Position numbers and translations under genes: made by a program. Below the pieces are notes generated by a model that was not told where the DNA came from, did not search any database, and was given only the letters and a program-made list of their open reading frames with translations. A DNA stretch of 64,000 nt from Candidatus Daviesbacteria bacterium. Its GTDB lineage: Bacteria; Patescibacteriota; Microgenomatia; Daviesbacterales; UBA10151. Shown here one piece after another: positions 21,429-51,466 of the stretch. Position 1 is the first letter of the stretch, and each line of letters starts with the position of its first letter. The stretch covers positions 674,386-738,385 of the forward strand of contig JAQUSJ010000001.1 of the NCBI GenBank assembly GCA_028715175.1, written 5' to 3'.

Positions 21429-22553
21429 TTAATTGCTAACCAAAAATTCAACCACATCCCCATCCTTAACCTCATAATCTTTTCCTTCAGTCCTAACCCA
21501 CCCTTTGGCCTTAGCTTCTGTATATGATCCAGCTTCTATCAATTTATCATAAGAGATAACCTGGGCCCTGATAAAATTTTTCTCAAAATCGCTGTGGATT
21601 ACCCCTGCTGCTTGGGGAGCTTTTGTTCCTCTCTTTATAGTCCAAGCCCTGACTTCTTTCGGACCGGCAGTTAAAAAAGAAATTAGGCCTAAAAGGTCAT
21701 AGGCTTTGACAATTAATCTTTCCAAACCTGTTTGATCAATCCCTAAAGTTCTTAAATATTCCAATCTTTCTTCTTCTGAATAATCAGCCAATTCTTCTTC
21801 CAATTTGGCAGAGATAACCATCTCATTCTGACCATTCCACCTCGGAGATGTAACTGCATTTTTTTCACCTCCGAGGTGTTCTGAAATTGCGCTTTCTGAA
21901 ACATTTAGAACATATAGCGTTGGTTTAATAGTCAGAAGTGGCAGGCGATCAAACCAATCCTGAAGTCTGTCATCTGCTATCTGGTATTTCCCAAGATTTC
22001 TCCCTTGATTCAACTCCTCTTTTATCTGATTTAAAATCTCTGCTTTCTGACTTGCTAGTGGATCCATTTCCTGTTTACCCGCCGAAGCTTTAGCGAAGGA
22101 GGGGGCAGCTATTAATTTTTCCAGAGTTTGAAGATCTGCCAATCCTAATTCTGTTTCCACTACCAATTTATCTGAGTCTGGATTTTCCGCTCCAGCCCGT
22201 ACCACATTTTCATCCTGAAAATCCCGCAGAACATGAATTATGGCATCCACTTCTCTAATGTGAGATAAAAACTGGTTACCCAAACCGGCTCCGGTTGAAG
22301 CACCTTTTACTAATCCGGCAATATCTACAAATTCCACCACAGCCGGAACAACAGGAGGTTTTTTTGACACCTCAGCCACCAGATCGGCCAGCTTGTTTAG
22401 CCTCTCATCAGGTACTGCCACCACCCCCACATTTGGTTCAACTGTGGCAAAAGGATAATTGGCAGAAAGAGCCACTCTTTTTTTCAAAAGAGCATTGAAC
22501 AAAGTACTTTTCCCAACATTTGGTAATCCAACTATCCCGACTTTTAAAGACAT
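21429..22553 (-). CDS. ychF: ribosome-binding ATPase YchF (Obg-like GTPase family) with in-frame palindromic insertion
   Basis: MSLKVGIVGLPNVGKSTLFNAL… G-domain, coiled-coil insert, C-terminal TGS domain. Family-B element at 21837..21878. Confidence 0.9.
   Translation of the reverse strand: MSLKVGIVGLPNVGKSTLFNALLKKRVALSANYPFATVEPNVGVVAVPDERLNKLADLVAEVSKKPPVVPAVVEFVDIAGLVKGASTGAGLGNQFLSHIREVDAIIHVLRDFQDENVVRAGAENPDSDKLVVETELGLADLQTLEKLIAAPSFAKASAGKQEMDPLASQKAEILNQIKEELNQGRNLGKYQIADDRLQDWFDRLPLLTIKPTLYVLNVSESAISEHLGGEKNAVTSPRWNGQNEMVISAKLEEELADYSEEERLEYLRTLGIDQTGLERLIVKAYDLLGLISFLTAGPKEVRAWTIKRGTKAPQAAGVIHSDFEKNFIRAQVISYDKLIEAGSYTEAKAKGWVRTEGKDYEVKDGDVVEFLVSN
21837..21878. repeat. Family-B palindromic element (CCACCTCGGAG-N19-CACCTCCGAGGTG), in frame in ychF
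   Basis: Read directly; encodes …SEHLGGEKNAVTSPRWNGQ…. Confidence 0.75.
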
Positions 22554-22610
22554 ACCTGGAAATTATAAGCAAAGCTTGAAATTTTCGCTACGCTCAAATT
22601 ATAACTTAAT

Positions 22611-23066
22611 TTATGGATTTAGTATAACAATGGATAAATTAAGGAATGAGGCAAAAGTAACCCAAAGTAGATATGGGATTAATAAATTACCAGCCAGCTT
22701 GTTAATTTTGGTAAAAGCCTTAATTGTTAAGAAAATTGCTATCCATAAGGCCACTATCTCTACTAAAGCCAAGGCAGGGTTTTTCATCTCAAAAAAGATA
22801 ATGGACCAAGCTACATTTAAAATAAGCTGAATCCAGAAAATAGTTGGAACTTTCTTCTTTGTCCAAACTAAATATAAAGAGAGCCCCATCATTATATAAA
22901 GTATTGTCCAAACAGGCCCAAAAACCCAATTAGGCGGAGAAAAGAAAGGTTTATTTAAAGTTTGATACCAGTCAGGAATGGAAGAAGTAATAAACAAACT
23001 CCCTACTCCTCCTGCTGCAAGACAAATAACAATGGATAGAATAAGTTTAAAAATATTCCTGGGCAT
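22611..23066 (-). CDS. tspO: TspO/MBR family tryptophan-rich sensory protein
   Basis: …PDWYQTLNKPFFSPPNWVFGPVWTILYIMMGLSLYLVW…NVAWSIIFF…IPYLLWVTFASFLN… carries the TspO signature. 5 TM helices, 151 aa. Confidence 0.85.
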   Translation of the reverse strand: MPRNIFKLILSIVICLAAGGVGSLFITSSIPDWYQTLNKPFFSPPNWVFGPVWTILYIMMGLSLYLVWTKKKVPTIFWIQLILNVAWSIIFFEMKNPALALVEIVALWIAIFLTIKAFTKINKLAGNLLIPYLLWVTFASFLNLSIVILNP

Positions 23067-23238
23067 TACTTTAACTTTATCATAAAATTAAAGAAAAGAA
23101 AAAAGTAGTCCTAAAAAGAAAATTAAATAAAAAAAGTTTTAAGACCAAGTAAGCAAGATAAAAAAATAAACAAAACTTGGGACTTTTGGGAAATATTGTC
23201 TGCATCAATCCTTTTAGGTTATTAACGAAGATTTTGAT

Positions 23239-23640
23239 CTAAAGCCCCCCGAATGTATTACGCCATTCTTGACCAAAAAGACAATTTGCTGCTCTTTCTG
23301 TTTCTATAATTAAATCTAAGAAAACATCTCCAGTTGTTCCATCCCTGAAATCTCCTTCATACGGCTTCGGTTGAAAAGCTATAACTCTACCGCTTCCGTC
23401 CCGCATGAGTGAACCTGTTATTCCAATTCCTAACTCATGTAGAGCATTTGCAAAATCTCTGAAATTAAATGGGGTCGTTCTTGCATCAACTCTCATTGGC
23501 CTTGGTGGATATTGTGTCTCTTGTCAGCTACTAATTCCACCTAATGCAACTCTAACAGCATTTTGTTCGCGCGGTCCTAATCTGTTAAATGAATCTAAAG
23601 TTGAAGGGTCTACTGCACCCCAATTTTTCACGGTTTCCAT
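23239..23640 (-). pseudogene. 133-codon reading frame interrupted by one in-frame TGA at 23524-23526 (38-aa ORF + TGA + 94 codons); hypothetical protein, possible pseudogene or recoding
   Basis: Hand translation: METVKNWGAVDPSTLDSFNRLGPREQNAVRVALGGISS-TGA-QETQYPPRP-MRVDARTTPFNFRDFANALHELGIGITGSL… Both segments lie in the same frame. Confidence 0.3.
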
Positions 23641-23714
23641 AATTTATGAGAAATATAGCAAAATAGATAACAAAAGTCAAAGCTTATAAAAACCGAGGTT
23701 AAAATTTTAGGGAT

Positions 23715-24206
23715 TTACTTGGCTTTTTTATTACCAGCTTCTTCTATTTGGGATTTGATGAATTTTAGATAGCCTAAAAATAAAGCAATTACTAAACCAA
23801 TGCTTACAACCAAAAAACGAAACTTTGCATCTTCGCTGGCAAATCCCCGGACAATAGAGTAGATTAAAGTTAATACTCCCCCAAGTAACATCCCATCGGC
23901 AATAACTAGGATGGCTTTGGCAAATGTTAAGCTAATAATTAAAATTGTTATCGCCGCTGCCAAAGAGATAATTGAAACATTACGGTTATAAATTTTATCT
24001 TTTTCCATAAAAATCTTTTCCTCAGCATCAAACTTTTCCTGCTCCTGCTTCACCTCTGGCGAAACCACATCTTTTGGAGGACAGTATTTTATTGATAGTG
24101 GCGGCTCCGGGGATTTGGGTCCAGGATAAAAAGCAGCAATACCTACTCCCACAAAGGCAGCAAGAAGTATTCCGATAAAAATAATGTAGACAAATTTTAA
24201 TATCAT
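23715..24206 (-). CDS. hypothetical membrane protein (N- and C-terminal TM helices)
   Basis: 163 aa, hydrophobic termini, no motif recognised. Confidence 0.4.
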   Translation of the reverse strand: MILKFVYIIFIGILLAAFVGVGIAAFYPGPKSPEPPLSIKYCPPKDVVSPEVKQEQEKFDAEEKIFMEKDKIYNRNVSIISLAAAITILIISLTFAKAILVIADGMLLGGVLTLIYSIVRGFASEDAKFRFLVVSIGLVIALFLGYLKFIKSQIEEAGNKKAK

Positions 24207-24284
24207 TTAATAATTTTTTCTTTTCCAGTTTCTGACATATAAATAATTATATATCTTTCAAAAATTAAAAATAGAGGCCAACTG

Positions 24285-25313
24285 TTATTTCAAGTATTTA
24301 TTAAAAAAATCTATTGATCTTTGCATTGCAAGGTTAAAGCTTGGTCCAGAGATATTATGGTCTGCCCCGTTATAGGTATAGAGTTCAACGGTTTTTCCTT
24401 GTTTCTCCAAATCATTTTTTAAACCTTCGGAAAATAAGAAAGGAACCTCAGCATCTGCTAAACCCTGATGCAGTTGCAAGGGACCGGAGATATCTTTTAG
24501 GAAAAACCGCGGATCAATGCTTTGCCAAAAACTTGGATTAGAACTTGGGGTACCGTATTTTAATATCAAGTTTTGTTTGATGGAACTGATATGTCCGGCT
24601 ATTTCTTGATTTGAGAATGTCGTAGGTCTTATTCCATGCCATTTATTTAAGAGCTCATCATAAGTCCCCACCACCCCCGCCCAAATAACTCCGGCTTTAA
24701 TATCGGAAGAAATAACCATCGCACGTAAAGTAATATTCCCTCCCATTGAATGACCCCACATGCCAATTTTTCCCGGATCTACGTCTTTATATCTCTTAAC
24801 AGATGCAAGGGCATTTAAGACATCAATCGTATAAGCCGGTGAGTAATATGCTCCCTCTGATATTCCTTCGGAATTCCCATTGCCCCGGTAATCGGGCTTA
24901 AAAACTACAAAACCTTCTCTTGCAAAACCGTCCACATAAGCCACATACCTTTCGGTAGTTTTATACTGTGCCGGCGGGATATAACCATGATTAAAAATAA
25001 TGGCAGGCCAACCGCTTTCAGGCATGACGCCAGTTGGAACTGTTAATAAACCATAAATCTTTAACCCGTCTGATTTATAGGAAGCAATATATTGTTTATA
25101 ATTTTCTCCCGAAGTTAAAGTTTCCTCAATGATTAAATCGCTTCCCTGGTAACTTCTAGCCCTCATTTGAGAAATTTGCAAAGGGTTAACTTGAATAGGT
25201 TTTGGTGAATTTGAATCCGGAACAGCTTTAGGTTGTAATCTTACCTGATAAATTAACAGCCCAAAAACTATGACGATAAAAGACAAAAAAATAAGCAGCT
25301 TCTTATTAAGCAT
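24285..25313 (-). CDS. alpha/beta-hydrolase (S9 prolyl-oligopeptidase / dienelactone-hydrolase-like), membrane anchored or secreted
   Basis: Nucleophile elbow GHSMGG, downstream D and H. N-terminal TM/signal. Confidence 0.7.
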   Translation of the reverse strand: MLNKKLLIFLSFIVIVFGLLIYQVRLQPKAVPDSNSPKPIQVNPLQISQMRARSYQGSDLIIEETLTSGENYKQYIASYKSDGLKIYGLLTVPTGVMPESGWPAIIFNHGYIPPAQYKTTERYVAYVDGFAREGFVVFKPDYRGNGNSEGISEGAYYSPAYTIDVLNALASVKRYKDVDPGKIGMWGHSMGGNITLRAMVISSDIKAGVIWAGVVGTYDELLNKWHGIRPTTFSNQEIAGHISSIKQNLILKYGTPSSNPSFWQSIDPRFFLKDISGPLQLHQGLADAEVPFLFSEGLKNDLEKQGKTVELYTYNGADHNISGPSFNLAMQRSIDFFNKYLK

Positions 25314-25319
25314 AAACCC

Positions 25320-25634
25320 TTACTTAGCCAAAAGTAAAAGCAAGAAAACCCCAGCCAGATAAAAAGAAATCCAGCCGATTGTCCAAAAAAGCAAAGGAAA
25401 AGCTTGCCTGTACCTTTTTTCCCAAAATAAAAAACCGGCTCTGCCCAAAACCAAAACAGAGGAAATAATGGCTGATAAAACAAAAATTAAAAGGAAAAGA
25501 ATGGGACCAAAATAATTATTCATCTTACCAAATATTTGATTTCCATAAAGGAAGATCAAAGAAACAAGGCTGATATAAATAAGTAATCCTGTGGCTTGCA
25601 GAAAAGCCAGGAAAGGAAGAGAGAACTTTTTCAC
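25320..25634 (-). CDS. hypothetical small membrane protein (3 TM)
   Basis: 104 aa, hydrophobic, no motif. Confidence 0.35.
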   Translation of the reverse strand: MKKFSLPFLAFLQATGLLIYISLVSLIFLYGNQIFGKMNNYFGPILFLLIFVLSAIISSVLVLGRAGFLFWEKRYRQAFPLLFWTIGWISFYLAGVFLLLLLAK

Positions 25635-25662
25635 CTAACTATTTTACCATATCTTCCCCTTT

Positions 25663-26775
25663 CTAATTTAAAAACCACTTTTTCATTTGAGCAATTATCT
25701 GTTCTCCGTTTGTAGTTTTCAAAACTGCCGGCATTGGATCAGACAAATATACTCCATTTAATTTTTTACTGCCTTCCTCCAAAACAATTCCGATATCTCC
25801 TGCAGGCCACATTTCATTGTTTCCCTTATAACCATGTTCAGCAACTACTACCTCCGGCACCACGTCCCTTTTAGCCCAAGCCGAAGCCTTATCCATATTA
25901 AAATCTATAACTTTGCGGAGTTCCTCTAAATCAGTTGGCGGCGGCGCAGGATGCGGCATAACCCCCAACACATCATAACCTTTAAAATTTAAGTTATCAC
26001 CTTCACCTTTATGTAAATCTCCTTTGTAAAAAATTTTACCTTGGTAATTTTTTCTAATTTTGGGAAGAATTTCCTGATTCCAGGAAGAGGCCACTTTGAT
26101 GCCAAAAATATTTTCCGGCTCACCCATTGGGGCAAACATTTCAATATGGTATTTTTGGGCAATTTTTGCCATATCCTCAACCACCTTGTCGAATTTGTCC
26201 AAATATCCGGGTTTTTCCACCACCTCCTTTGGCAACGGTATGGGTTCCCCAGCCCACTGCCCCTTTGGGTCAAAATTTTCTTTGTAGTGAACCAGGACTG
26301 TCATAGTCAGATGAATGTTAGCTGAATAAAACTTGGTGGCCAACTCTCCCACCCGCGCATCCAAATCTTCATTCGTGGGAAAATCAGGAGGGTAGCGCAC
26401 TTCACCTTTACTGTTTATCTCAAAACCGGGAGCAATATTGACAATATTTACTCCCCAGCTTTTGTACTTTTCAAGATCAAGTTTTAAACCTGTATATTGT
26501 TCCGGGTAAATTAAGTTTCCCGACCAGAGACCTTTATAAAAAGTTATTTTATCTTTTGGAGGATTAGGAATCGGACCACTCCAATGGGCTATTTTAGGAG
26601 GCATGGAAGGACCAAAATTTTCTGCCCCTCCAGGTCTTTGACCCCAACCCGGTTGATTTTGTTCTGGTCCTTTATTTTGTCCTGTAATTCCTGTAAACTT
26701 TGAAAAGCCCACTCCTACAACAACCGCCAATATAGCAACAATTAAAAAAATAGGGGCAAAACCTTTTTGAGTCAT
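25663..26775 (-). CDS. hypothetical membrane-anchored extracellular protein, possibly a TIM-barrel glycoside-hydrolase-like enzyme
   Basis: N-terminal TM anchor and a G/P-rich linker. …FAPMGEPEN… is vaguely reminiscent of the GH5 NEP motif (weak). 370 aa. Confidence 0.35.
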   Translation of the reverse strand: MTQKGFAPIFLIVAILAVVVGVGFSKFTGITGQNKGPEQNQPGWGQRPGGAENFGPSMPPKIAHWSGPIPNPPKDKITFYKGLWSGNLIYPEQYTGLKLDLEKYKSWGVNIVNIAPGFEINSKGEVRYPPDFPTNEDLDARVGELATKFYSANIHLTMTVLVHYKENFDPKGQWAGEPIPLPKEVVEKPGYLDKFDKVVEDMAKIAQKYHIEMFAPMGEPENIFGIKVASSWNQEILPKIRKNYQGKIFYKGDLHKGEGDNLNFKGYDVLGVMPHPAPPPTDLEELRKVIDFNMDKASAWAKRDVVPEVVVAEHGYKGNNEMWPAGDIGIVLEEGSKKLNGVYLSDPMPAVLKTTNGEQIIAQMKKWFLN

Positions 26776-28673
26776 TTATTTTCTCCTGAACAATCTTTGG
26801 GACAATTTTCTTTGGTCTCATCATTTGATGGTTCACAAATAGTGTCACCGCATTTGCCTGTGCCCTGTTTCTCCTCTCCTTGAGGTGAATTCTGGGTAGG
26901 TTGTTTAATTGCCTGATTTGGTTTTTGGCCCAACAATTGAAGAAAAAAGTTCAGGATTTTTTGCACCAAACCAATTTGCTTTCCCTCCGAAGATTGACTG
27001 TCTCCTACATTTCCCCCGCTGCCCATACCCTTTAAAGCTTCATCCATTGGTTTTGGCTCAATAACTGTTTTGCACTCATAAACCTTATTTCTATTGGGAG
27101 ATAAAATCTCTTCAAAAAAGTATGGGGAACCACCCGTACCGGCCGCTATATATTTACCATTTGCTGATACTGCCACTTCTTCCACAAATTCCTTAAACTC
27201 AACTGGGATATCTTTCTTTCCGCCAGCTGGCGGATTGGGATCCAGGATATGAACCTTACTATCTGTACTACCCAAAGCAATTACACTGCCATCATCGGAA
27301 ATATCAGCCGAACCAATAGTAGTATTTAAATGCCAATCTGAAATTGACTTGCCGTCTTTATTCAAAAGATAAACATCACCCACAGTATTGGCTGCCACAA
27401 TTGAATTTCCATCAGAAGTCATATCCATTGCCCTGGCAGCTTTAGAGCTGGAACCGGTAAATTTCCACAAGGGTTTGGAAGAATTTTTAGCAAACGCCAC
27501 CACCATAGAAGAATCAGGTCCGCCGTCAGTAGTGAAGCTCGCAAAACTTCCATCTTTAGTAATCCTAGCCCGCTGGACAGGTGAATCATAGGTTAACCTA
27601 CCAGAGACCATTACCGGCTTGTTGGAATCCTTACTAAAAATATAGGCCTGGCGGTCCGGACAACCGGTTGAACCTACCACAAAGCTACCGTCTTTTGAAA
27701 AAGCAATATCATGGAAATTTCCTGAAGCATGATACTGCCATAAGGGTTTTGAAGAACTCACCTTCCAGATAATTAGCAGGTTGCTGTTCAAGATTGTTTC
27801 TGAACCAGCTGTAGCTGCCCCAACATATTGACCATTTTCAGAAATAGCCACATTATAGGCATTATCTGTTGAATATTTCCAAACAGGCTTATTACTGGAT
27901 TTATCGAATAACAACACATTACTACTAATTGAGGCAAAAATCTTTGATCCGTCCCCGGAAATGGCTATCCCTCCTTTAACATCCCCACCAATCATTCCAC
28001 TAGTTCCATGCTCATAAATCCAAACTGGTTTTTCAGGCTTACTAGTATCAAACAACAAAACCTTGCGGGAAGTTTTAACGGCCAGATATTTCCCATCAGA
28101 AGATATAGCTATCCCGCCTACCCATTCATCGCCTACCGGATATTCCAGGATCTTCTTGCCGGAACCATCCATCACGGCTATCTCATTATGCAGAAAATCG
28201 CTTTCAAAAAGCACCGGCCCATTGCCCGGAGAATCAATTATCCCTTCCCGAGTTTTACCTAAACCGTTAGAGGCTTCAAAAAAGAAAAAATTGCCTCCAA
28301 TTTTGTTTGGGACAAATTTATAAATATACCTGATACCTTTTTTATAATCGTTGTCATTGGAATTTTCTTTTTGAGGAACGATCCAATCTCCGTTAAAATA
28401 CATTTTTACATATTCCGGCGGCCGACCTTCTTTATCACGATAAGTTGTGTAATACGTATATCTTTGACAGGGAGGTCCCCACATCGGGTAAACTCCGCCA
28501 TTTTCTAAAATTGGGTCATTGGCAGTTTTAGAAAGTTTTGGGATCATCTGACCTGGCCCGGGAGGAGGCTTTGACTCTGCTGAAACTACTTTAGAAAAAC
28601 CAAAAAGATGGCTGATTATAAAAAAAATCAAACTAATTATTAAAGCTAAGACGAGCAGTTTAATAATCTTCAT
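26772..28673 (-). CDS. secreted beta-propeller repeat protein (WD40/YVTN-like blades) with Cys-rich C-terminal tail
   Basis: Signal/TM at N-terminus. About 8 repeats of the form (I/F)S.DG(K/S)… Tail KCGDTICEPSNDETKENCPKDCSGENK. 633 aa. Confidence 0.55.
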   Translation of the reverse strand: MKIIKLLVLALIISLIFFIISHLFGFSKVVSAESKPPPGPGQMIPKLSKTANDPILENGGVYPMWGPPCQRYTYYTTYRDKEGRPPEYVKMYFNGDWIVPQKENSNDNDYKKGIRYIYKFVPNKIGGNFFFFEASNGLGKTREGIIDSPGNGPVLFESDFLHNEIAVMDGSGKKILEYPVGDEWVGGIAISSDGKYLAVKTSRKVLLFDTSKPEKPVWIYEHGTSGMIGGDVKGGIAISGDGSKIFASISSNVLLFDKSSNKPVWKYSTDNAYNVAISENGQYVGAATAGSETILNSNLLIIWKVSSSKPLWQYHASGNFHDIAFSKDGSFVVGSTGCPDRQAYIFSKDSNKPVMVSGRLTYDSPVQRARITKDGSFASFTTDGGPDSSMVVAFAKNSSKPLWKFTGSSSKAARAMDMTSDGNSIVAANTVGDVYLLNKDGKSISDWHLNTTIGSADISDDGSVIALGSTDSKVHILDPNPPAGGKKDIPVEFKEFVEEVAVSANGKYIAAGTGGSPYFFEEILSPNRNKVYECKTVIEPKPMDEALKGMGSGGNVGDSQSSEGKQIGLVQKILNFFLQLLGQKPNQAIKQPTQNSPQGEEKQGTGKCGDTICEPSNDETKENCPKDCSGENK

Positions 28674-28681
28674 TTACACTA

Positions 28682-29275
28682 CTACACTACCGCCACAGCA
28701 ATCAGGTTATATAAGCCATGTGCGGCCATAGAATAGATAAGGGAATTGCCTCCTTGTTCGTCTTTGGTAACCCCAAAATAAACACCAATTAACCCGGTCA
28801 TTGCCGTTGCCGCCAAGGAATAACCTTTAACAAAATGTACTAGCGCAAAAAGGATATTAGATAAAACCAGCGCAATCCAGATATTTCCGCCAAATCTTTT
28901 TTTGAAATCTTCCTGTAAGTACCCGCGGAAAAAGAATTCTTCGGCAAAGGAACCAATTAAAAGCATCAATGGAAACGTTGCGGGAGCTACAATTGGCCTG
29001 CCCGTCAAAGACCACCTGAAATATAAGACTACCGGCAGGAGGAAAACAAAAAAGATTCCCACAAGAGGTTTGCCAACCCGAAATCCTAAATCAACAAAAG
29101 AAAATTTCTTAAAAAGAATCAAAAGAATTGGTAAAGCAAAAAGAACAGTGTAATAAGGGTCAATCGGCAAACCGCTCTGTTGCAGATATTGTCGGAAGCC
29201 GTAGGCTGCTATTACTAGCACTGATAAACCAATCGGAAGCAGGACAGAATTTTGCTTCATAATTTTACTGTACAT
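28682..29275 (-). CDS. CPBP-family intramembrane metalloprotease (CAAX protease / Abi domain)
   Basis: EEFFFRGYLQ (motif 1 EExxxR), FALVH (motif 2), HGLYN (motif 3). 197 aa, multi-TM. Confidence 0.8.
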   Translation of the reverse strand: MYSKIMKQNSVLLPIGLSVLVIAAYGFRQYLQQSGLPIDPYYTVLFALPILLILFKKFSFVDLGFRVGKPLVGIFFVFLLPVVLYFRWSLTGRPIVAPATFPLMLLIGSFAEEFFFRGYLQEDFKKRFGGNIWIALVLSNILFALVHFVKGYSLAATAMTGLIGVYFGVTKDEQGGNSLIYSMAAHGLYNLIAVAVV

Positions 29276-29291
29276 CGCTCTTAGTAAAGAG

Positions 29292-29903: not shown

Positions 29904-31033
29904 GTTTTTTCTATCTCCACAAGTCTTTCATATTTTACCATCCGTTCTTTTTGCAGCGGGCAGCCGGATTTTAATCCATCTGCTCCTATCCCTACTGCCA
30001 GATCCGCAATAAAAGTATCCATGGTTTCCTCGCCACGATTAGCAACTACTATTTTCCAACCATAAGATTTAGCCAAATTTACTGCCTGAATAGTTTCAGT
30101 TACTGTCCCTATTTGAGTAGGTTTGATAATCACGGCGTTGACAGCATTTTTATCTGCTGCCATTTTGAGGCGTTTAGGGTTGGTCGTAGTCAGATCATCT
30201 CCAATTATCCAGATCTTTTCGCCAAGGCTGGCGGTAATTTTGGAAAATCCATCCCAGTCATCTTCGGAATATGGATCTTCAATAGCCAGTAGATTGTAGT
30301 TGGTAGTAAGTAGTTGATAGTAAGAAAGATCAATTTTATTTTCTAATTTCGTAGCAGCGCAGTCCAGACCAAACTGTGCATTAGAAGAAATTTCCTGCAT
30401 AATTTTTAAACCATCTTCAGCATTTTTAGAGGGAATCGTATAGCCTCCTTCAGATCCCATTTCCACTTCCCCATAACCATCCTTTATTTTATCTCCCAAA
30501 AGTTTAAGAAAATCATTCGCTTCATCTAGACTTTTTTGAGGTGAATTAGTTTTAGGGATAAACCAGTATTCCTGAAAAGGTAATCCGCCAGCTGGCGGAT
30601 TACCATGCACCCCACCTTCTATGACATTAAAAAAACAAAGTGGCAAAGATGGTTTTGCGCCAGAAATTTTAGAAACGAGCTGCCAAACTTCCATACCAGC
30701 ACTTTTTGCCAGAAGTTTGGCAAAAGCCATACTTAACGCAATAATCAAATTACCTCCCAGGTTTGATTTATCTTCTGTCCCGTCTAAAGTAGTAAGTAAT
30801 CCATCAAATTGATCTAAGGTAGCAAAATCGTGATCTTTAATTTGTGAGAAAATCCAATCCGTCTTTTCCAGGGCTTTTTGAGGAGGGATAACCTTTGCTT
30901 CATTTTTTCCAGTACTTTCTCCTGTGGGCACGGACGCAATCACACTTGTTCCATCTGACAGCATTTGAGCCTCCAGAGTATCTTTACCTTTGGAATCAGG
31001 AATAATCTGAAAGTGAATCCTATCAATTTTCAT
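29891..31033 (-). CDS. eno: enolase (phosphopyruvate hydratase), divergent short form
   Basis: N-terminal …IIPDSKGKDTLEAQ…ASVPTGESTGKNEA… and a C-terminal TIM-barrel region (VANRGEETMDTFIADLAVG, a variant of SHRSGETED). Confidence 0.75.
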   Translation of the reverse strand: MKIDRIHFQIIPDSKGKDTLEAQMLSDGTSVIASVPTGESTGKNEAKVIPPQKALEKTDWIFSQIKDHDFATLDQFDGLLTTLDGTEDKSNLGGNLIIALSMAFAKLLAKSAGMEVWQLVSKISGAKPSLPLCFFNVIEGGVHGNPPAGGLPFQEYWFIPKTNSPQKSLDEANDFLKLLGDKIKDGYGEVEMGSEGGYTIPSKNAEDGLKIMQEISSNAQFGLDCAATKLENKIDLSYYQLLTTNYNLLAIEDPYSEDDWDGFSKITASLGEKIWIIGDDLTTTNPKRLKMAADKNAVNAVIIKPTQIGTVTETIQAVNLAKSYGWKIVVANRGEETMDTFIADLAVGIGADGLKSGCPLQKERMVKYERLVEIEKTWHI

Positions 31034-33435: not shown

Positions 33436-33471
33436 ATTGTATTAGAACTTATTATCTATATTTATTATAGC

Positions 33472-34329: not shown

Positions 34330-34361
34330 TTGTCTCTCCGTTTCTCTTGTAAGCCAAAAAA

Positions 34362-36029: not shown

Positions 36030-36059
36030 AAAGTATACTAATTATGGTATATTAACAAA

Positions 36060-38191: not shown

Positions 38192-38198
38192 AGACTAT

Positions 38199-42617: not shown

Positions 42618-43708
42618 GTTAAAACCTTTTTGAGTTCCCCTTTCTCTAAAGCTTCTTTTATTTCCATTGCTACTCTTTTTCCCATACTTAAATTTTGCCC
42701 GTATAAATACATACCATAAGGTGTAGCAAAGATACCAGGACTGCCGGGCATTCTCGGGGAAACATCAAACACAATTATTTCTTTTTTAGGAGGACCGGCA
42801 GTGATCATGGTTTGCAAACCGAATGGACCTATGACACCAGGTTTATATAATTTTTGGGTAGTTGCTACAAATCTTTCCCCCATATCAAATGCGTCTTCAA
42901 GAAGCGATTCCAAAACAGTTACGGCAATGTGTCCTGCTTCTTCGTATTTTACCTGTAAGCGACCTGCCTTCTCTAACTCCTCTTGTACTATGGCTGGACT
43001 ATGTACAACACCTTCTAGATTAGTTTGCCTTCTTGTGTCTGTTCCTATCAATTCCAATCTATCATTTAATGGGTCATAAAAGAAATTGAAGTTTACCTGT
43101 ACTCCCAAAAGAAATTCTTCAATAACAGCATTTTCTAAATTAGCTTTAGAGATAATACCCTTTTGTAAAAGAAAATCGCTCTTCTTAGTGTAAACTTCAT
43201 ATGAGTCGCATAGGAAGAACGAGCGTTCAAATCCTCTCGTCTTTTCCAAGACTTTAACAATACAAAGTCGGTCTATATCTTTAGGATTTTTAAATTGTTT
43301 GGGATATCTAATATTTGCAGCATCCAGCAAGTCATACTGATTCGGTTTAACTCCTCTTTCTTCGGCTTTCAGTAGAAATCTATTTCCAAACATCGGCACT
43401 TTAAATTTTTTCTCAATGGCATTGTAATCATTTATGTAAACCTCAAAAGACCGATGAGGCACAAATATGCAATTTCTTTTTAACAGCTGCTTTTGAACTT
43501 CCGGTTTTAAAACATCAGCAAATTTGTCTAACTCGATTACTTCATCAATGCAACCGAGCATACCTTGGCTTTTATAATATTTTACATAAGTTTTATCCCG
43601 ACCCTTTTGAACAATAACTAAAGTTTTAAACCCTAAATCCTTTGCACCACGGCATACATCCAAAGCGGAGTGTGAACCTAATACAGCAATGGTGTATTGT
43701 TTATTCAT
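42614..43708 (-). CDS. purP: archaeal-type ATP-grasp FAICAR synthetase paralog (PurP family)
   Basis: MNKQYTIAVLGSHSALDVCRGAKDLGFKTLVI…PHRSFEVY…MFGNR…GPFGLQ… is a PurP-like architecture (my recall of Methanocaldococcus PurP). More divergent than its neighbour. Confidence 0.65.
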   Translation of the reverse strand: MNKQYTIAVLGSHSALDVCRGAKDLGFKTLVIVQKGRDKTYVKYYKSQGMLGCIDEVIELDKFADVLKPEVQKQLLKRNCIFVPHRSFEVYINDYNAIEKKFKVPMFGNRFLLKAEERGVKPNQYDLLDAANIRYPKQFKNPKDIDRLCIVKVLEKTRGFERSFFLCDSYEVYTKKSDFLLQKGIISKANLENAVIEEFLLGVQVNFNFFYDPLNDRLELIGTDTRRQTNLEGVVHSPAIVQEELEKAGRLQVKYEEAGHIAVTVLESLLEDAFDMGERFVATTQKLYKPGVIGPFGLQTMITAGPPKKEIIVFDVSPRMPGSPGIFATPYGMYLYGQNLSMGKRVAMEIKEALEKGELKKVLT

Positions 43709-44720
43709 CCAAAACTTCCTTTAGTCTATTCTGCTCTATAGCATTCTTTATCTCTCTTGCAATACGTCTTCCTGTTGACATTGGCTCTTCATAATTTAAA
43801 TACGTGTATGGGGAACCGTCAATAAAACAATTTGTTCCTGCCACAATTCGGGCAGAAATTTCGATTACATAAATCTCTTCTGTCGAGGTAATGATTGTCT
43901 CCAAACAAAATGGCCCAAAAAGCCCTTTTGCTGGCATCAATTTCTGAGATGTCTCAACCACCCTTTCTGCCATTGAGATTGCCTCGGGAAGTAGTGATTC
44001 TCTAATTGCCATAGGAATATTGGCAACTACTTCAAAAGACGGTTCTATATTTAAACCTCTTTGGTTTTTTGCAGGAATACGGCCTAGCGAGTCAACATTT
44101 GTTTCATATCGTTTGTCCAAACTCATCATCTCCACCTTTTTCGTTAAAGGCGAATAAAAGAAATGAAAATAAACAGGCACTCCGATAACATATTCCTGAA
44201 CCATAAACTTCTGTTCGCTGAAACTAATTAATTTGGTATCAAACTCTTTTTGATTTCTGGCAGTGAAATAACCCTTGCCTCCTGCCGCCCCGTATGATTT
44301 AACGATAACCGGACGGTCTATTTTATCTCCTCTTTTGAAAAGATGAGGAACTTTTATTCTTGCTTTCTCCATCCACTTCCTTTGCATTTTGCGGTTTTCT
44401 TCCCAATCCAAAACTTTCTTATTGCCAAAATATAAAGTCTTCATACTTTTATTATTGTCCATACCTAAATAGGCCACAAATGAGCCATGTGGAATTATGA
44501 TGGCATTTCTTTTTAGAAGTTCTTTTTCTAACTTAAGAAAATCGCTCCATCTATCAATTTCTAAAATCTCATCAATAAAATTACCGTAAGATTTATAAAG
44601 CGGAATTCTGTCTTTAGTGGAAACTACTGCAGTTTTAAAGCCTTCATCTTTTGCCCCTTTGAGGATTTGCAGGGCGGAGTGAGAACCTAAAGTTACAATT
44701 GTATGGTTTATGATTCCCAT
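43701..44720 (-). CDS. purP: 5-formaminoimidazole-4-carboxamide ribonucleotide (FAICAR) synthetase, archaeal-type PurP
   Basis: MGIINHTIVTLGSHSALQILKGAKDEGFKT…IIPHGSFVAY…YFGNKK…YFHFFYSPL…DKRYETN…GRIPAKNQ…NIPMAIRESLLP…GPFCLE… Near-colinear similarity to archaeal PurP over the full length. Confidence 0.8.
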   Translation of the reverse strand: MGIINHTIVTLGSHSALQILKGAKDEGFKTAVVSTKDRIPLYKSYGNFIDEILEIDRWSDFLKLEKELLKRNAIIIPHGSFVAYLGMDNNKSMKTLYFGNKKVLDWEENRKMQRKWMEKARIKVPHLFKRGDKIDRPVIVKSYGAAGGKGYFTARNQKEFDTKLISFSEQKFMVQEYVIGVPVYFHFFYSPLTKKVEMMSLDKRYETNVDSLGRIPAKNQRGLNIEPSFEVVANIPMAIRESLLPEAISMAERVVETSQKLMPAKGLFGPFCLETIITSTEEIYVIEISARIVAGTNCFIDGSPYTYLNYEEPMSTGRRIAREIKNAIEQNRLKEVLDE

Positions 44721-44795
44721 AGCTTATTATAACTAACATGCATTAAAATTACAAATTTTTGTTAGTTACAGTCTTCCGCAGGAAGTATATATTAA

Positions 44796-46205
<1,410 letters not shown>

Positions 46206-46206
46206 T

Positions 46207-47805
46207 TTATTCCCATTCCATAGTGGCCGGGGGTTTGTTGGTGATATCGTAAACCACACGGTTTACTTCACGAACTTCATTTACAATTCTTGTTGAAATT
46301 TTTTCTAAAAGATCAAAAGGAAGTTTAGCAAAATTGGCAGACATGGCATCTTGGGCTTCAATGGCTCGAATAGCAATTGTTTCCCCATACGCTCTTTCGT
46401 CTCCTCTGACTCCTGTTGTTTTAATTCCTGTAAAAATTGCAAATACTTGCCAAAGATTTTTAGCTAAATCAGTTTTTTCAATTTCCTGCTGAATAATTTT
46501 ATCTGCTTTTCTTAAAATTTCTAATTTCTTTTCAGTAATTTCACCAATAATTCTTACTGCCAATCCCGGTCCTGGAAAAGGTTGTCTATTTAAAATTTGC
46601 TCAGGCAATCCCAAAATCTTCCCAATTTTCCTGACTTCATCTTTATAAAAATTCCTTAAGGGTTCTATTAAAACAAGATTCATTTTTTTAGGTAAAGCCC
46701 CGACATTATGATGTGATTTAATCACTCGTGCATGTTTGGTGCCGGCACTTTCTATCACATCAGGATAAATGGTACCTTGGACCAAAAATTTTGCTCCACT
46801 TTCTTTAGCTAATCTTTCAAAAACCTCAATAAAAATTTTGCCTATTACTTTTCTTTTTTGTTCAGGATCTGCTACCTCTTTTAATGCTTTTAAGAATTCT
46901 TTTTTTGCATCTATAATTTTTATATCCATATTGTAATGTTTGGCAAAAACCCCTCTTAAGGTATCTGTCTCACCATCTCTCATCAATCCCGAATCTATGT
47001 AATAACAAGTTAAATTTTTACCAATGGCTTTATAAACTAAAAGAGCAGCTACCGAAGAATCCACCCCGCCAGACAGTGCGCATATTGCTTTTTCTCTTCC
47101 TACAGAATCTTTAATATCGGAAATTATATTTTCTACAAATTTTTCATCTATTGTTGATCTTTTGGGATTTAATCCGCAGATCTTTAAAAAATTTTCCAAA
47201 ATTTCTGTTCCAAATTCCGTATGCATAACTTCGGGATGAAACTGTATTCCATATATTTTTTTATTTTTATTTTCCACAACAGCATGAGGAATTGTTTTTG
47301 TAGTAGCAATTGTCTCAAAATTCTCTGGTATTTTAACGACCTCATCACCATGACTCATCCAAACCGTGATACCACTTGGAACTGTGGATAATAAATTAGA
47401 AGATTTTTTTATAGTAAGTTCTGCCGGACCATATTCTTTTTTATACCCTGGTTTAACTTCGCCACCCAAAAGCTGACACATTAACTGTTGTCCGTAACAA
47501 ATACCTAAAATTGGAATACCTAACTCAAATATTTTTTTGTCAATTGTCGGCGCGCCTTTTTCATAATCGCTTGCGATTATATCGCGACGCTTCTTGTAAC
47601 GCGGTGCGTTATAAACAGATGCTGGCCCTCCTGAAAATATTATTCCTTTTACTTTCTTGTCATTCTGGAGCCCTTCGCTACGCTCGAGGGTAAACTCCGC
47701 GATAGAATCTTCCGGTGCAACAATTTCACAATCCACCCCCAACTCTCTTATTCTTCTCCCAATCAAATGCGCTGTTTGCGATCCAAAATCAACTAAGACA
47801 ATCAC
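46207..47805 (-). CDS. guaA: GMP synthase (glutamine-hydrolysing), with in-frame palindromic insertions in the GATase domain
   Basis: MIVLVDFGSQTAHLIGRRIRELG…, GICYGQQ (catalytic Cys), SGGVDSS PP-loop, C-terminal …PPATMEWE. Confidence 0.9.
   Translation of the reverse strand: MIVLVDFGSQTAHLIGRRIRELGVDCEIVAPEDSIAEFTLERSEGLQNDKKVKGIIFSGGPASVYNAPRYKKRRDIIASDYEKGAPTIDKKIFELGIPILGICYGQQLMCQLLGGEVKPGYKKEYGPAELTIKKSSNLLSTVPSGITVWMSHGDEVVKIPENFETIATTKTIPHAVVENKNKKIYGIQFHPEVMHTEFGTEILENFLKICGLNPKRSTIDEKFVENIISDIKDSVGREKAICALSGGVDSSVAALLVYKAIGKNLTCYYIDSGLMRDGETDTLRGVFAKHYNMDIKIIDAKKEFLKALKEVADPEQKRKVIGKIFIEVFERLAKESGAKFLVQGTIYPDVIESAGTKHARVIKSHHNVGALPKKMNLVLIEPLRNFYKDEVRKIGKILGLPEQILNRQPFPGPGLAVRIIGEITEKKLEILRKADKIIQQEIEKTDLAKNLWQVFAIFTGIKTTGVRGDERAYGETIAIRAIEAQDAMSANFAKLPFDLLEKISTRIVNEVREVNRVVYDITNKPPATMEWE
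47564..47611. repeat. cluster of small GC-rich palindromes (ATAATCGCTTGCGATTAT; AACGCGGTGCGTT) in frame in guaA
   Basis: Read directly. Encodes …NAPRYKKRRDIIASDYEK…, not expected in the GATase domain. Confidence 0.6.
47658..47709. repeat. Family-A element copy in frame in guaA (TGTCATTCTGGAGCCCTTCGCTACGCTCGAGGGTAAACTCCGCGATAGAATC)
   Basis: Read directly; encodes …SIAEFTLERSEGLQNDKK…. Confidence 0.7.
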
Positions 47806-48590
47806 GGCTTTGCCTCCTTAACAAACTTTACAATGTTTTCAAACAAAGGTAAACCTTGTGGTTTTGTAATATTTCCCCTTCGCCAGTTTGGGTGCTGTTC
47901 CACCCGGACAAAACATTCAGGATGCGGCATCATCCCTAAAATCCTGCCTGTTGTATCTGTTATTCCTACTATCGAATTTAAGGAACCATTTGGATTTTCT
48001 GGATATTCCATTGTTGGATTTCCATTTTCATCAACATATCTGAATGCCACTAAATTTTGATCTTCAATTTCTTTTAGAATTTCCTCATCGGCAATAAATT
48101 TACCTTCGCCATGGGCAATCGGCAACCAGATTATTTCATTATCCATTTCTCTCAAAAATTGGCTGTTATTTTTATTATTAACTTTAACTTTTATCCATCG
48201 GCATTCAAAATGTCCCGAATCGTTATTTGTTAAACTAACTCTCATTTTTCCAATTTCTCTAAATGGCAAAAGACCAGTCCTAACTAAAACCTGGAAACCA
48301 TTACAAACTCCCAAGATGGCAGTATTTTTTCGTTCAATAAATTTCTGCAATTCTTCTTTAAAAAATGAAGTTAGCTCAATTGCCAAAATTTTTCCGGAAA
48401 CTATGTCGTCCCCATAGGCAAAACCGCCGGGCAAAGCAAGAATTTGATAATCCTTCAGTTTTACAGAACCGTCTCTTAATTGATTTACATGCACTATTTT
48501 TGAATCCCCGCCGGCAATCTTAAAAGCATAAGCCATCTCTTCGTCTCTATTTGTCCCATCTGCTTTTAAAACTAAAACTTTTGGTTTCAT
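47802..48590 (-). CDS. purQ: phosphoribosylformylglycinamidine synthase, glutaminase subunit
   Basis: MKPKVLVLKADGTNRDEEMAYAF… and GVCNGFQ (class I GATase Cys). 262 aa. Confidence 0.9.
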   Translation of the reverse strand: MKPKVLVLKADGTNRDEEMAYAFKIAGGDSKIVHVNQLRDGSVKLKDYQILALPGGFAYGDDIVSGKILAIELTSFFKEELQKFIERKNTAILGVCNGFQVLVRTGLLPFREIGKMRVSLTNNDSGHFECRWIKVKVNNKNNSQFLREMDNEIIWLPIAHGEGKFIADEEILKEIEDQNLVAFRYVDENGNPTMEYPENPNGSLNSIVGITDTTGRILGMMPHPECFVRVEQHPNWRRGNITKPQGLPLFENIVKFVKEAKP

Positions 48591-51466
48591 GAAAACATCT
48601 CCTTCATTGGTTTCTGCCAGACTTTTTTCAAATTTGGAACTTCCGCACTAAAGAAATTCTTAACATCAATAATAGGAGCTTTTTGTGTTTTACCTAAAGT
48701 TATGTAAGGAATATTTTTGAATAATTGTTTGGCAACTTTTTCATCTTTCACCTCAACAATAAAACATCCTGTTGTCTCATTAAATAGCAACTCACTCACC
48801 TCCGAGGAACCCATTCGGCCACCTCGGAGGTGTGACGAAGTTACTCCTCCGAGGTGGATATTTACCCCGCAATTTCCCCCAACACACATCTCAAAAATAG
48901 CTGAAATTACCCCACCTTCAGATATATCATGACATGACAATATTTGTCCATTTCGTATTCCCTTGTAGATTGCATCAAAAGTTTTTGGCAGTAACTTTAG
49001 GTCTATTCTTGGAACAGAATCTGTCTCCAGATTATTTACTTGATGATATACAGATCCTCCTAAATTCTTATCCATTTCCCCAACCAAAACAATTGTTGAA
49101 CCGACCTTTTTCAAATCGGCAGTAACAGTCTTTCTTGTATCCTCTATTTTCCCTAGAACCGAAATGCAAAGCGTTGGTGGAATTTTAATAACGCTTCCAT
49201 CTGCCCCACGGTAAGTTGAAGACAGGCTATCTTTACCGGAAATCACCGGAATTTTAAAAATTTTCATAAAATCCACCACCGCATCAACTGATCTATCAAG
49301 CGACCAAAGAGACTCTTGATCTGGAAAAGGCCAAATATAATTGTTTATTAAAGAAGCATTTTTGTAGTCTCCGCCAACTGCGACAAAATTTGATAAGGCT
49401 TCAGTCGCTGCCCAGATACTTCCCCAGTATGGATCTATATTATTAAAAACCGGATTTAATCCGTGTGAAATAATCATGCCATATTGTTTGGAAAGTACGG
49501 GACGCAAAACCGGAGAATCATTAGGCCCATCTAAATTTTTTCCTGAATATGGCTGAAGGTCATTTGTTCCCTGAACTAAATGGTCATACAACCGGACAAT
49601 TGGCTCTTTTGAACAGACATTTCCGTGAGATAATACTTTTCGCAAAACCTTGATCCATTCTTCCTCTGATTTTGGTTGTATTGGTTCTTTGATCTGACGA
49701 CTGACGACTGACGACTGACGACTTGCTTTCAAAACCCGTTTCGGCAACCCATGGTGCAAAAACTGCATATCCAAATGGCCCACTACTTTACCACCAAAAT
49801 AAACTTTTAATTTTTTACTGCCATCAAATTTTCCTAAAACCGTACTTTCAACATTATATTTTTTACAGATCATTTCAAAAACCTTAAGGTTTTTCGGATC
49901 CAATACTACAATCATTCTTTCCTGTGATTCTGACAAAAAAATTTCCCAGGGAGCTAAACCTTGATATTTTAAAAGGGCATTTTTTATGTCAACCGTAACT
50001 CCTAAAGTTTCACCAATCTCGCCAATGGCAGATGAAAATCCTCCTCCGCCGCAATCTTGCACTAACCTTATTAAATCTTGATCTCTTGCTTCAAGCAGCG
50101 CATCAAACATCCGTTTTTCTTCAATTGCGTTTCCGATTTGCACTGCCGAAGAGTGTGTCGTATAAGTATCTGCAGTCATTTCCCCGGACGAAAAGGTAGC
50201 ACCATGAATCCCATCCCTGCCAGTTCTACCCCCTACACAAATTATTAAATCATTTCTTTCAGGTTTATCTTTTATCGCATATTTTTTTGGCACTATTCCA
50301 TATGCTCCTACAATAACCGTTGGTCTAGCCCTAAAATCTTTGTGAAAATGGACTGATCCGTTATTAGTAGGAATCCCCATTCTGTTTCCGTAATCCCTTA
50401 CCCCTGAAACTACTCTTTTCAATAAATATTCCGGTGGAAGACATCCTGCTGGTAACTGGGAAGCCGGCAAATCAATCGGAGCAAAACAAAAGATATCTGT
50501 TGAGGCAATATTTTTGGCTCCTTTACCTGTTGCAGCAATGTCGCGGAACACTCCGCCTGATCCGGTCATCGCTCCACCATATGGCTCAATAGCTGATGGA
50601 GCATTATGGGTTTCGACTTTACCACAAATCCCAAAACCGCCGTAGAAATCCATCACACCCGAATTGTCAACAAATGCTGAAACAATATTTTTATCATGCT
50701 TTAGCGCTTCTTTTTTCAATCTATCAATGAGCGGCTCTTTCTTTTTTCCATCAACTAATAACTCAGCTTTAAAAGTTTTATGCCCCGAGTGTTCACTCCA
50801 AGTTTGGGCTAAAGTTTCCAGTTCTAAATCAGTGGGGTCCCTTTTTTCTGCTGCAAAATATTCTTGGATCTTTTTCATCTCTTCCAAATTAAGAAAAAGC
50901 TGATCTTTAGATAAATCCCGCAACTCTTGATCATTCAAACTTCTTATAGGAATTGTTTGAATTTTGCCAGGTTGTCCTTTCAAAATAAGCGTTTGCGGCT
51001 CATCTTTCACGATATGCTCGATAAGCGAGTTATAGAGTTTCAGTTTTTCTACGATCTTTTCGACTTCTGCTTTTTTTAAGCTTCCGTAAAATGCATACTC
51101 AAAGGATGAATCGCATGCCGGCAGTTTAATTCCCAAATCATCTGCAGCTTTGATAATGGATGTAACTTCCGGATTCATCACCCCTGGCTTGTAAGCTATT
51201 TCAATAATCACAGACTTCACCTCCGAGGTGGGCTTTGACTCCTCGGAGGTGGAATTAATCGTATATCTTTGATTAATTGATTCAGATAATAATTTTTCAG
51301 CCAAAATTTTGGCCTCTTTTTCAGATATTCCTTCCAATCTATAAACTTTGATCGCAGAAACTCTGGTAATATTTTTAATTCCCAACATCCGATGGATGTC
51401 ATTTAAGATACCATCTCCTTTTAAATCTGGTCCAACTATTGTTTGTACTCTGACTTTTTGTATCAT
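48587..51466 (-). CDS. purL: phosphoribosylformylglycinamidine synthase: tandem PurS-PurS N-terminal domains fused to PurL (FGAM synthase II)
   Basis: Two PurS-like ~75-aa modules at the N-terminus, then a small-PurL body. 959 aa. Family-B palindromes in frame at 51218..51252 and 48797..48857; heptamer array at 49694..49721. Confidence 0.9.
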   Translation of the reverse strand: MIQKVRVQTIVGPDLKGDGILNDIHRMLGIKNITRVSAIKVYRLEGISEKEAKILAEKLLSESINQRYTINSTSEESKPTSEVKSVIIEIAYKPGVMNPEVTSIIKAADDLGIKLPACDSSFEYAFYGSLKKAEVEKIVEKLKLYNSLIEHIVKDEPQTLILKGQPGKIQTIPIRSLNDQELRDLSKDQLFLNLEEMKKIQEYFAAEKRDPTDLELETLAQTWSEHSGHKTFKAELLVDGKKKEPLIDRLKKEALKHDKNIVSAFVDNSGVMDFYGGFGICGKVETHNAPSAIEPYGGAMTGSGGVFRDIAATGKGAKNIASTDIFCFAPIDLPASQLPAGCLPPEYLLKRVVSGVRDYGNRMGIPTNNGSVHFHKDFRARPTVIVGAYGIVPKKYAIKDKPERNDLIICVGGRTGRDGIHGATFSSGEMTADTYTTHSSAVQIGNAIEEKRMFDALLEARDQDLIRLVQDCGGGGFSSAIGEIGETLGVTVDIKNALLKYQGLAPWEIFLSESQERMIVVLDPKNLKVFEMICKKYNVESTVLGKFDGSKKLKVYFGGKVVGHLDMQFLHHGLPKRVLKASRQSSVVSRQIKEPIQPKSEEEWIKVLRKVLSHGNVCSKEPIVRLYDHLVQGTNDLQPYSGKNLDGPNDSPVLRPVLSKQYGMIISHGLNPVFNNIDPYWGSIWAATEALSNFVAVGGDYKNASLINNYIWPFPDQESLWSLDRSVDAVVDFMKIFKIPVISGKDSLSSTYRGADGSVIKIPPTLCISVLGKIEDTRKTVTADLKKVGSTIVLVGEMDKNLGGSVYHQVNNLETDSVPRIDLKLLPKTFDAIYKGIRNGQILSCHDISEGGVISAIFEMCVGGNCGVNIHLGGVTSSHLRGGRMGSSEVSELLFNETTGCFIVEVKDEKVAKQLFKNIPYITLGKTQKAPIIDVKNFFSAEVPNLKKVWQKPMKEMFS
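48797..48857. repeat. Family-B palindromic element cluster (CACCTCCGAGG / CCACCTCGGAGGTG / CCTCCGAGGTGG), in frame in purL
   Basis: Read directly; encodes …HLGGVTSSHLRGGRMGSSEVSE…. Confidence 0.75.
49694..49721. repeat. heptamer tandem array CTGACGA x4, in frame in purL
   Basis: Read directly; encodes …SRQSSVVSRQ…. Confidence 0.8.
51218..51252. repeat. Family-B palindromic element (CACCTCCGAGGTGGG-N8-CCTCGGAGGTGG), in frame between the two PurS modules of purL
   Basis: Read directly; encodes …TSEESKPTSEVKS…. Confidence 0.75.

Follow-up and report, generated by a model that had tools for sequence, protein, structure and literature searches.

The 64-kb stretch of DNA analysed here and called the window in the following (64,000 nucleotides of contig JAQUSJ010000001.1 from a Candidatus Daviesbacteria bacterium, positions 674,386 to 738,385) carries two housekeeping genes into which copies of a short palindromic repeat, designated Family B, have been inserted in frame. 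The first host gene, ychF (21429-22553, minus strand), encodes the ribosome-binding ATPase YchF as indicated by the Pfam domains MMR_HSR1 and YchF-GTPase_C and a match of E = 1e-104 to Thermus YchF (2DBY), with no identical record returned by an exact-match look-up of the protein. The second host gene, purSL (48587-51466, minus strand; Pfam PurS, FGAR-AT_linker, AIRS and AIRS_C), encodes a PurS-PurS-like N-terminus fused to phosphoribosylformylglycinamidine (FGAM) synthase II, PurL, and its product is 100% identical to NCBI MDD5416112.1 of a Candidatus Daviesbacteria metagenome-assembled genome (MAG); the homologs of YchF and PurSL likewise point to Candidatus Daviesbacteria (Microgenomates) as the origin of the window. 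The Family B unit is a 13-bp odd palindrome, CACCTC[C/G]GAGGTG (CACCTCSGAGGTG), with a central C or G, and occurs seven times in the window, grouped as two units in ychF, three in the C-terminal part and two in the N-terminal part of purSL. A preliminary description of this DNA had already recognized an in-frame palindromic repeat family in both genes at exactly these positions; its 'one to three' copies per site are to be read as clusters of two, three and two units, and its characterization of the genes as AT-rich is only relative in a window of approximately 38% GC and 92% coding density. With up to two mismatches, the 14-mer of that description gives 11 strand matches in the window, whereas shuffled sequences give 0.05 on average and never more than 1. 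As, in addition, the same elements reside at the same sites in independent ENA, JGI, NCBI and Logan assemblies and the reading frames remain open, chance occurrence or an assembly artefact has next to no probability as an explanation.

The ychF element is a 41-nt hairpin (21838-21878, minus strand) with arms at 21838-21850 and 21866-21878 and a loop at 21851-21865, which encodes (E)HLGGEKNAVTSPRW directly after the NVSE/G4 motif. Within purSL, a tripartite element (48797-48856, minus strand) with units at 48797-48809 (degenerate at the 3' end), 48820-48832 and 48844-48856 and the loops (gene sense) GGCCGAATGGGTT and TAACTTCGTCA contributes HLGGVTSSHLRGGRMGSSEV to the C-terminal PurL domain. 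The second purSL element, a 34-nt hairpin (51218-51251, minus strand; arms 51218-51230 and 51239-51251, loop GGCTTTGA on the plus strand), inserts STSEESKPTSEV into the stretch that links the two PurS-like modules, a placement put forward before and retained here with a weak match of residues 1-70 to Pfam PurS (18.3 bits, under the cut-off) and a match of 22.4 bits for residues 86-159. All seven units are in frame and give rise, dependent on the frame, to HLGG/HLRG, TSEE/TSEV/SSEV or SPRW peptides; since the units are translated in all three frames, Family B is conserved on the DNA and not on the peptide level. Selection of the inserted peptides themselves, which as Gly-, Ser- and Pro-rich sequences might serve as flexible linkers or for interaction, would agree with the location of the insertions in linkers and with the small, polar character of the peptides, but three unrelated peptides derived from one DNA unit according to frame, the presence of both orientations, the conservation at the nucleotide level and the existence of intergenic copies make such selection very improbable.

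A Family B element is composed of two, sometimes three, 13-bp units in alternating inverted orientation, which are separated by a subfamily-specific loop of 8-30 nt, with a total length of 29-60 bp. Going beyond the preliminary description, neighbouring units in the window are seen to pair into stems of 13-18 bp. The scans of species-representative genomes and metagenomes for paired units, on which this and the subsequent comparisons draw, cover the matches listed and provide lower bounds. The unit centres are complementary in all four window pairs and in 122 of the 126 non-redundant metagenomic pairs listed (94 C..G and 28 G..C; Fisher P = 2e-23) and, because the centres alternate between C and G, adjacent units are mutual inverted copies; one and the same loop has been found with C-G as well as with G-C centres. 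In mRNA sense, the predicted RNA fold amounts to -24.5 kcal/mol (z = -5.4) for the ychF element, -33 kcal/mol (z = -3.3) for the tripartite purSL element and -21.9 kcal/mol (z = -4.3) for the N-terminal purSL element, with similar stabilities for the opposite strands. In the ychF genes of L002, L004 and L005, A-T has taken the place of G-C at one stem position in both arms, by which the pairing between the arms is kept and the palindromy of each single unit is broken.

The 126 listed metagenomic elements display further regularities. The second stem pair from the loop is a T.T or A.A mismatch (GAG versus CAC, or GTG versus CTC) in 53 of 126 elements (L129-L248), a site which also involves the window units 48844-48856 and 51239-51251, and the compensated A-T combination is present in none of the 126; the mismatch resembles a feature conserved in a sub-lineage. 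Equally, G hardly ever precedes the first arm and C hardly ever follows the last one, the bases flanking the outer arms are complementary in 14 copies versus approximately 40 expected, and 73 of 126 copies (58%) have an arm-to-arm length of 1 mod 3; flanking-base bias and length may reflect where the elements really end or what cleavage requires. Extended pairing beyond the arms was not found in these elements.

Comparison of orthologs demonstrates that the elements come and go. Daviesbacteria YchF proteins range from 353 to 405 residues, with the length differences located at few hotspots filled by various repeat-derived peptides (alignment A1). The ychF element is present at the same site with the same loop in L001, L002, L004 and L005 (77-83% identical) and missing from L006 and most Daviesbacteria orthologs. 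The element had been thought to add about 15 residues to the inter-domain region of YchF; the segment rather adds eight residues compared to element-free Daviesbacteria orthologs and none compared to Thermus and E. coli YchF, and its site just after the NVSE (G4) motif is in the G domain and not between domains. Judged by the YchF structures in the alignment, the site falls in the second half of this domain. L001 and L002 carry a second ychF element, KSTSEESKPTSEV, near the N-terminus. The window ychF is devoid of 33 nt of the L001 sequence and possesses GAGGTG TCA AAA AAA CCT CCT instead of the ancestral EEKMDQLPP type; as the last six bases of the element (GAGGTG in gene sense; 22368-22373, minus strand, by codon alignment with L001) and the derived downstream sequence are retained, this second copy has been deleted in the window.

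Additional observations on ychF concern other sequence. A second, unrelated GC-rich insert in the window gene (22071-22106) encodes PSFAKASAGKQ in the coiled-coil region and is patchily distributed, being present in L004, P0006, P0010 and P0016 and not in the closest relative L001. In the L004 ortholog P0003 (1125-2312), short duplications (NVSE...YNVSE, RWNNQRWNG) flank the shared element. An AlphaFold2 model of YchF built from A1 was of poor quality (mean predicted local distance difference test score, pLDDT, of 55, and below 50 for residues 229-240) and was not relied on.

For purSL, both elements are missing from most orthologs, for example the baseline sequences P0123, P0126 and P0128 (alignment A2), the N-terminal site having a net gain of about +5 to +7 and the C-terminal site one of +14 to +16 residues; thus in both genes most orthologs are without the residues in question. 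Both elements are shared with the 90%-identical P0122, and the C-terminal element with P0122, P0131 and P0165. Copies have decayed in P0130 and P0145. In further Daviesbacteria, the two window sites and two more sites are occupied by different Family B variants that are read in other frames (HLEGVKAHLRG, HLGGVKAHPPGG, HLRGEAKTLPGSHLGG), and P0122 (L128) has an extra Family B copy at a third hotspot. At this hotspot, the window carries a tandem heptamer, (GACGACT)n on the plus strand (49693-49722), which encodes SRQSSVVSRQ; because both alleles are occupied by different repeats, a clean comparison of an empty with a filled site was not obtained between the window and the 91%-identical L128.

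Family B is not restricted to this DNA, the motif being abundant elsewhere. Paired CACC...GGTG forms are present in Davies-, Curtiss-, Roizman-, Beckwith- and Saccharibacteria and in two low-GC MAGs among the matches listed, whereby eight of eight assessable species-representative copies are in frame in long open reading frames (ORFs) and two others lie too near to the locus end. Metagenomes contributed at least 126 further non-redundant pairs of candidate phyla radiation (CPR) type in 722 kb of low-GC contigs (median GC 0.40). Long open frames contain 97 of 130 listed copies (approximately 75%), the remainder being intergenic or at gene ends; approximately 20-25% of the listed copies are intergenic. 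In comparison, the window harbours three Family B loci in 64 kb. For each of at least six loop subfamilies, members are spread over many unrelated genes and genomes, and all four loop types of the window (TCARAGCC, GCCGAATGGA, TGACGAAGTTA and TAACTGCATTTYTT) are found elsewhere. The ychF loop subfamily TAACTGCATTTYTT occurs in unrelated genes of L146, L174, L177, L191 and L194; the purSL C-terminal loop subfamilies and the tripartite layout in unrelated genes of L079, L126, L134, L181, L186, L206, L224 and L244; and the 34-nt subfamily of the purSL N-terminal element in L141, L182, L192, L196, L207 and L228, as well as in ychF of L001 and L002. Viral contigs gave no copy of the paired pattern and thus no sign of phage carriage. 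Rfam matched only a tRNA gene (7755-7837) in the window and covers the Family B elements with no family.

A compact 29-nt hairpin, RACCTCSGAGGTYT-loop-ARACCTCSGAGGTY with the core ACCTCSGAGGT, extends to Chloroflexota, Thiotrichaceae (relatives of Thiomargarita and Beggiatoa), Desulfobacterales, cyanobacteria, Bacteroidota and Ignavibacteria. This form is mostly intergenic (56 of 70 listed copies outside long ORFs). Among the loci L009-L127, examples are L011 652-680, L019 4251-4279 and 4516-4544, and L036 26-54 and 709-737; Rfam detected nothing at the hairpins of 18 such loci.

The genic location of stable hairpins raises the possibility that they are kept for a role in host mRNA or translation, by slowing the ribosome at domain boundaries, by affecting mRNA stability or by internal Shine-Dalgarno-like pausing. 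Stems very stable in mRNA sense, elements at inter-domain linkers and the ychF pairing, including a sense-strand G.U pair, kept across the 77-83%-identical orthologs are in line with such a role. On the other hand, the elements are missing from most orthologs, copies decay, as in P0130 and P0145, or are deleted, as in the window ychF, a fifth to a quarter of the listed copies are intergenic, and dozens of unrelated genes harbour the same elements, irrespective of orientation and frame. The specific proposal of ribosome pausing at GGAGG found no support: this motif is not avoided in coding sequences, occurring 64 times in sense in those of the window versus approximately 47 expected, with only four to five occurrences derived from Family B; GGAG is found upstream of only 11 of 60 window genes, few genes having a strong Shine-Dalgarno sequence; and the GGAGG of Family B is buried in a 13-bp stem. 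As the motif is common, genes with Shine-Dalgarno sequences are few and the element's motif is sequestered in a long stem, these sites are not singled out for pausing, and a function in mRNA or translation overall appears improbable as the reason for the persistence of the hairpins.

A candidate enzyme for mobilization has been traced through the flanking genes, a connection equally new compared to the preliminary description. Clustering of ORFs beside compact hairpins led to a small protein family with an HUH motif, which is hairpin-bracketed in Chloroflexota (L019, L036) and resembles REP-associated tyrosine transposases (RAYTs), REP denoting repetitive extragenic palindromic sequences; the L019 gene holds one compact hairpin copy in frame. 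With a RAYT-like query, tblastn revealed homologs in four CPR-type loci. In L168, the RAYT-like gene is bracketed on both sides by Family B pairs, with CACCCCGGGGGTG units further out. L162 has one Family B element inside the RAYT-like gene and three units just past its stop codon. In L255, the gene for a 222-aa Y1 transposase, 76% identical to the L168 protein, is bracketed by the only four perfect Family B units in 20.7 kb (9916/9959 and 10679/10722), which read TTACACCTCSGAGGTGTAA. The L255 gene itself starts with ATG CCT CGG AGG (10001-10012) and thus has the CCTCGGAGG core in its first codons, which may be coincidence. L257, from the same genome as L255, contains a 64%-identical paralog bracketed by pairs of the sister palindrome CACCCCSGGGGTG instead, and another pair is in frame in the adjacent dinB-like gene (copies at 8073-8110, 9916-9953, 10665-10702 and 11627-11664). 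The window has a single unit of this sister family, CACCCCGGGGGTG, at 4473-4485 (within 4468-4488, strand undefined) in the intergenic region between efp and the next ORF, the only further relative of the 14-mer outside the three clusters.

A database search with the L168 protein yielded 5,509 relatives of approximately 222 aa with the Pfam domain Y1_Tnp, with names such as Woese-, Gottesman-, Davies- and Levybacteria. The RAYT-like proteins score 30-40 bits against Y1_Tnp, above the gathering score of 23, and the sole significant (E < 0.001) NCBIfam match is 'REP-associated tyrosine transposase' (NF047646) with 39-56 bits. The best solved relative in a profile search is E. coli TnpA-REP (4ER8, E = 1e-4), ahead of ISDra2 TnpA; 4ER8 was found by this profile search only, as phmmer of one RAYT-like protein against PDB gave no match. 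The motifs YH..N.G, NHFH (the HUH motif) and YIHLNP are invariant in these proteins and the tyrosine of SYTRYFN nearly so.

Taken together, Family B elements are probably mobile DNA hairpins, small and non-autonomous, that belong to the REP/REPIN type, REPINs being hairpin-forming REP doublets, in Microgenomates and other CPR bacteria, which are served in trans by a RAYT-like Y1 enzyme. Several points weigh against this assignment. The bit scores with NF047646 are under its cut-off of 80 bits, tblastn with the RAYT query showed no RAYT-like gene in the 64-kb window, and each of the three RAYT-like loci examined in Daviesbacteria is flanked on both sides by CACC...GGTG-type palindromes of its own, different from Family B. 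The direct association of Family B with the transposase amounts to three loci, one of which (L255) belongs to a distant CPR genome (FolD 31% and L31 59% identical to those of the window) and two to unplaced metagenome contigs. A GTAG tag is found neither in nor beside the arms of Family B copies, and no target-site duplication of more than 2 nt exists in the 126 listed copies, with a 2-nt match in 23 of them. Perfect arms were required for inclusion in the metagenome sample, which is thus uninformative on conservation of arm versus loop, and the retention of the ychF element with its pairing in the 77-83%-identical orthologs could reflect a local function. Because the window lacks a RAYT, other Daviesbacteria transposases have cognate palindromes of their own and the link comprises three loci, we infer rather than observe that the Y1 transposase moves Family B; the genome of the window would have, or would have had, a Y1 transposase of this kind.

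Some of these points would equally be expected if the hairpins owed their mobility to gene conversion or recombination between copies, to template switches at the palindromes or to another enzyme, with transposase genes attracting them or sharing their hotspots. Besides the missing target-site duplication and GTAG tag, composite and tripartite arrays with common arms, hotspots that are overwritten and not cleanly filled, and an A-T arm variant shared by ychF orthologs and other elements, which fits conversion, can be accommodated by such processes. That perfect units bracket the gene symmetrically at three independent loci argues against them, as do the paralogs in the same genome each with its own palindrome, a specificity signature of REP-RAYT systems that is hard to achieve by passive attraction, and these processes are therefore considered an unlikely, yet the most credible, alternative to movement by a RAYT-like transposase.

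According to the proposed transposase-based mechanism, a RAYT-like Y1 (HUH) tyrosine transposase, with its own gene bracketed by Family B units, would copy the elements in trans around the genome, probably as single-stranded hairpins. As the genomes are approximately 92% coding, the copies are mostly inside genes. Survival would mostly be limited to copies that are in frame, from the outset or after trimming, and that reside in protein linkers and surface loops which tolerate them. The elements contain stop codons in almost no frame and would simply be translated into peptides of the HLGG, TSEV or PPRW type, presumably near-neutral to the host protein; candidate junction-spanning peptides of the inserts are ...SEHLGGEK... 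and ...STSEESKPTSEVK.... Inserted copies would subsequently drift, be replaced or be deleted, and the three clusters of the window would be such passengers in YchF and PurSL.

Similar to the REP/REPIN-RAYT systems of E. coli, Pseudomonas and Stenotrophomonas (PMC3116915, PMC3337134, PMC5581495, PMC3733652; structure 4ER8), Family B has short palindromic units in inverted pairs that fold into a hairpin, may likewise be dispersed in many copies, with three loci in the 64-kb window and at least 126 pairs in 722 kb of CPR contigs, is without target-site duplication and brackets a Y1/HUH transposase gene with the same units (L255, L168 and partly L162; the sister family in L257). In both REP/REPIN-RAYT and CPR systems each paralog has its own cognate palindrome. 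In contrast to REP/REPIN-RAYT, no GTAG (or CGTC) tag is located at the unit end, each Family B unit is by itself a near-perfect 13-bp palindrome, approximately 75% of the listed copies are intragenic and in frame, whereas REPs are mainly extragenic, and the linked transposases, of approximately 222 aa and below the NCBIfam RAYT cut-off, belong to CPR hosts. MITEs (miniature transposable elements with inverted repeats) derived from DDE insertion sequences are equally short and non-autonomous with terminal inverted repeats and a variable interior; Family B, however, is far shorter, lacks a target-site duplication and is connected with a Y1/HUH and not a DDE transposase.

Short GC-rich hairpins in coding sequences of a lower-GC genome are also known as 'byps' in AT-rich mitochondrial genes of Magnusiomyces, where they are bypassed by ribosomes. 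In Family B, in contrast, the frame is continuous through the element, as for the copies in long open frames mentioned above, and no translational bypass is needed. Bypass or frameshift was consequently rejected as a reading, the copies outside long frames being intergenic or at gene ends.

With Rickettsia palindromic elements (RPEs), Family B shares the in-frame insertion of palindromes into housekeeping genes of a small, low-GC, gene-dense genome, the translation (presumed for Family B) as extra loops and the presence or absence among orthologs. RPEs have a length of about 100-150 bp. Family B, at 29-60 bp, with ends without CGTC and with a candidate transposase named, differs from them in these respects. 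RPEs end in CGTC, and for CGTC-type repeats no dedicated transposase is known (PMC3733652); CGTC was not found at Family B element ends. In Xanthomonas and other species, Di Nocera et al. (PMC3733652) reported REP units that lie wholly inside the ORFs for known proteins and in some cases share their site among orthologs. These intragenic REPs are, however, a minority of a mostly extragenic population, whereas Family B is intragenic as a rule.

Other repeats in the window behave in a comparable way. A perfect 26-nt palindrome, GGTAATCCGCCAGCTGGCGGATTACC (30579-30604), and relatives built on ATCCGCC...GGCGGAT (27219-27234 and 6142-6157) are in frame in three genes and encode NPPAGG-type peptides; these are probably the other palindrome family mentioned in the preliminary description. 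Repeat-derived peptides typical for CPR (CHPERSEGS...RDSSSKTPQNDK, SRAKRGDPPWRIASSPASPDPHNDN, LERSEGLQNDKK and VIASPEGAWQS) exist in more housekeeping genes at 4965-7712 (aminopeptidase N-like), 44808-46205, 46207-47805 and 57680-59080. In-frame repeat insertions appear pervasive in the Daviesbacteria source genome.

In a broader perspective, there is about an even chance that CPR bacteria, including Microgenomates, possess a divergent REPIN-RAYT system without GTAG tag, with sister systems for other CACC...GGTG palindromes, whose main niche is inside protein-coding genes. In-frame palindromic insertions have been known from Rickettsia since 2000 and, to our knowledge, no mobilizing enzyme has been tied to them. 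REP/RAYT systems, on the other hand, are regarded as extragenic and have mostly been studied in Proteobacteria. Among the papers searched, none links RAYTs or REPINs with CPR or contains the motif strings as a bacterial repeat. The two phenomena are joined by a mainly intragenic repeat family that also brackets a RAYT-like gene. If true, RPE-like in-frame insertion of palindromes would for the first time have an enzyme connected to it, with a mechanism directly testable with the protein and hairpin oligonucleotides. Equally, if true, a dedicated Y1 transposase would drive much of the lineage-specific insertion and linker turnover in housekeeping proteins of CPR bacteria, which could account for part of the odd insertions in CPR proteins that hamper annotation, alignment and structure prediction and would provide a natural system for the tolerance of proteins towards inserted sequence and its recycling at linker hotspots.

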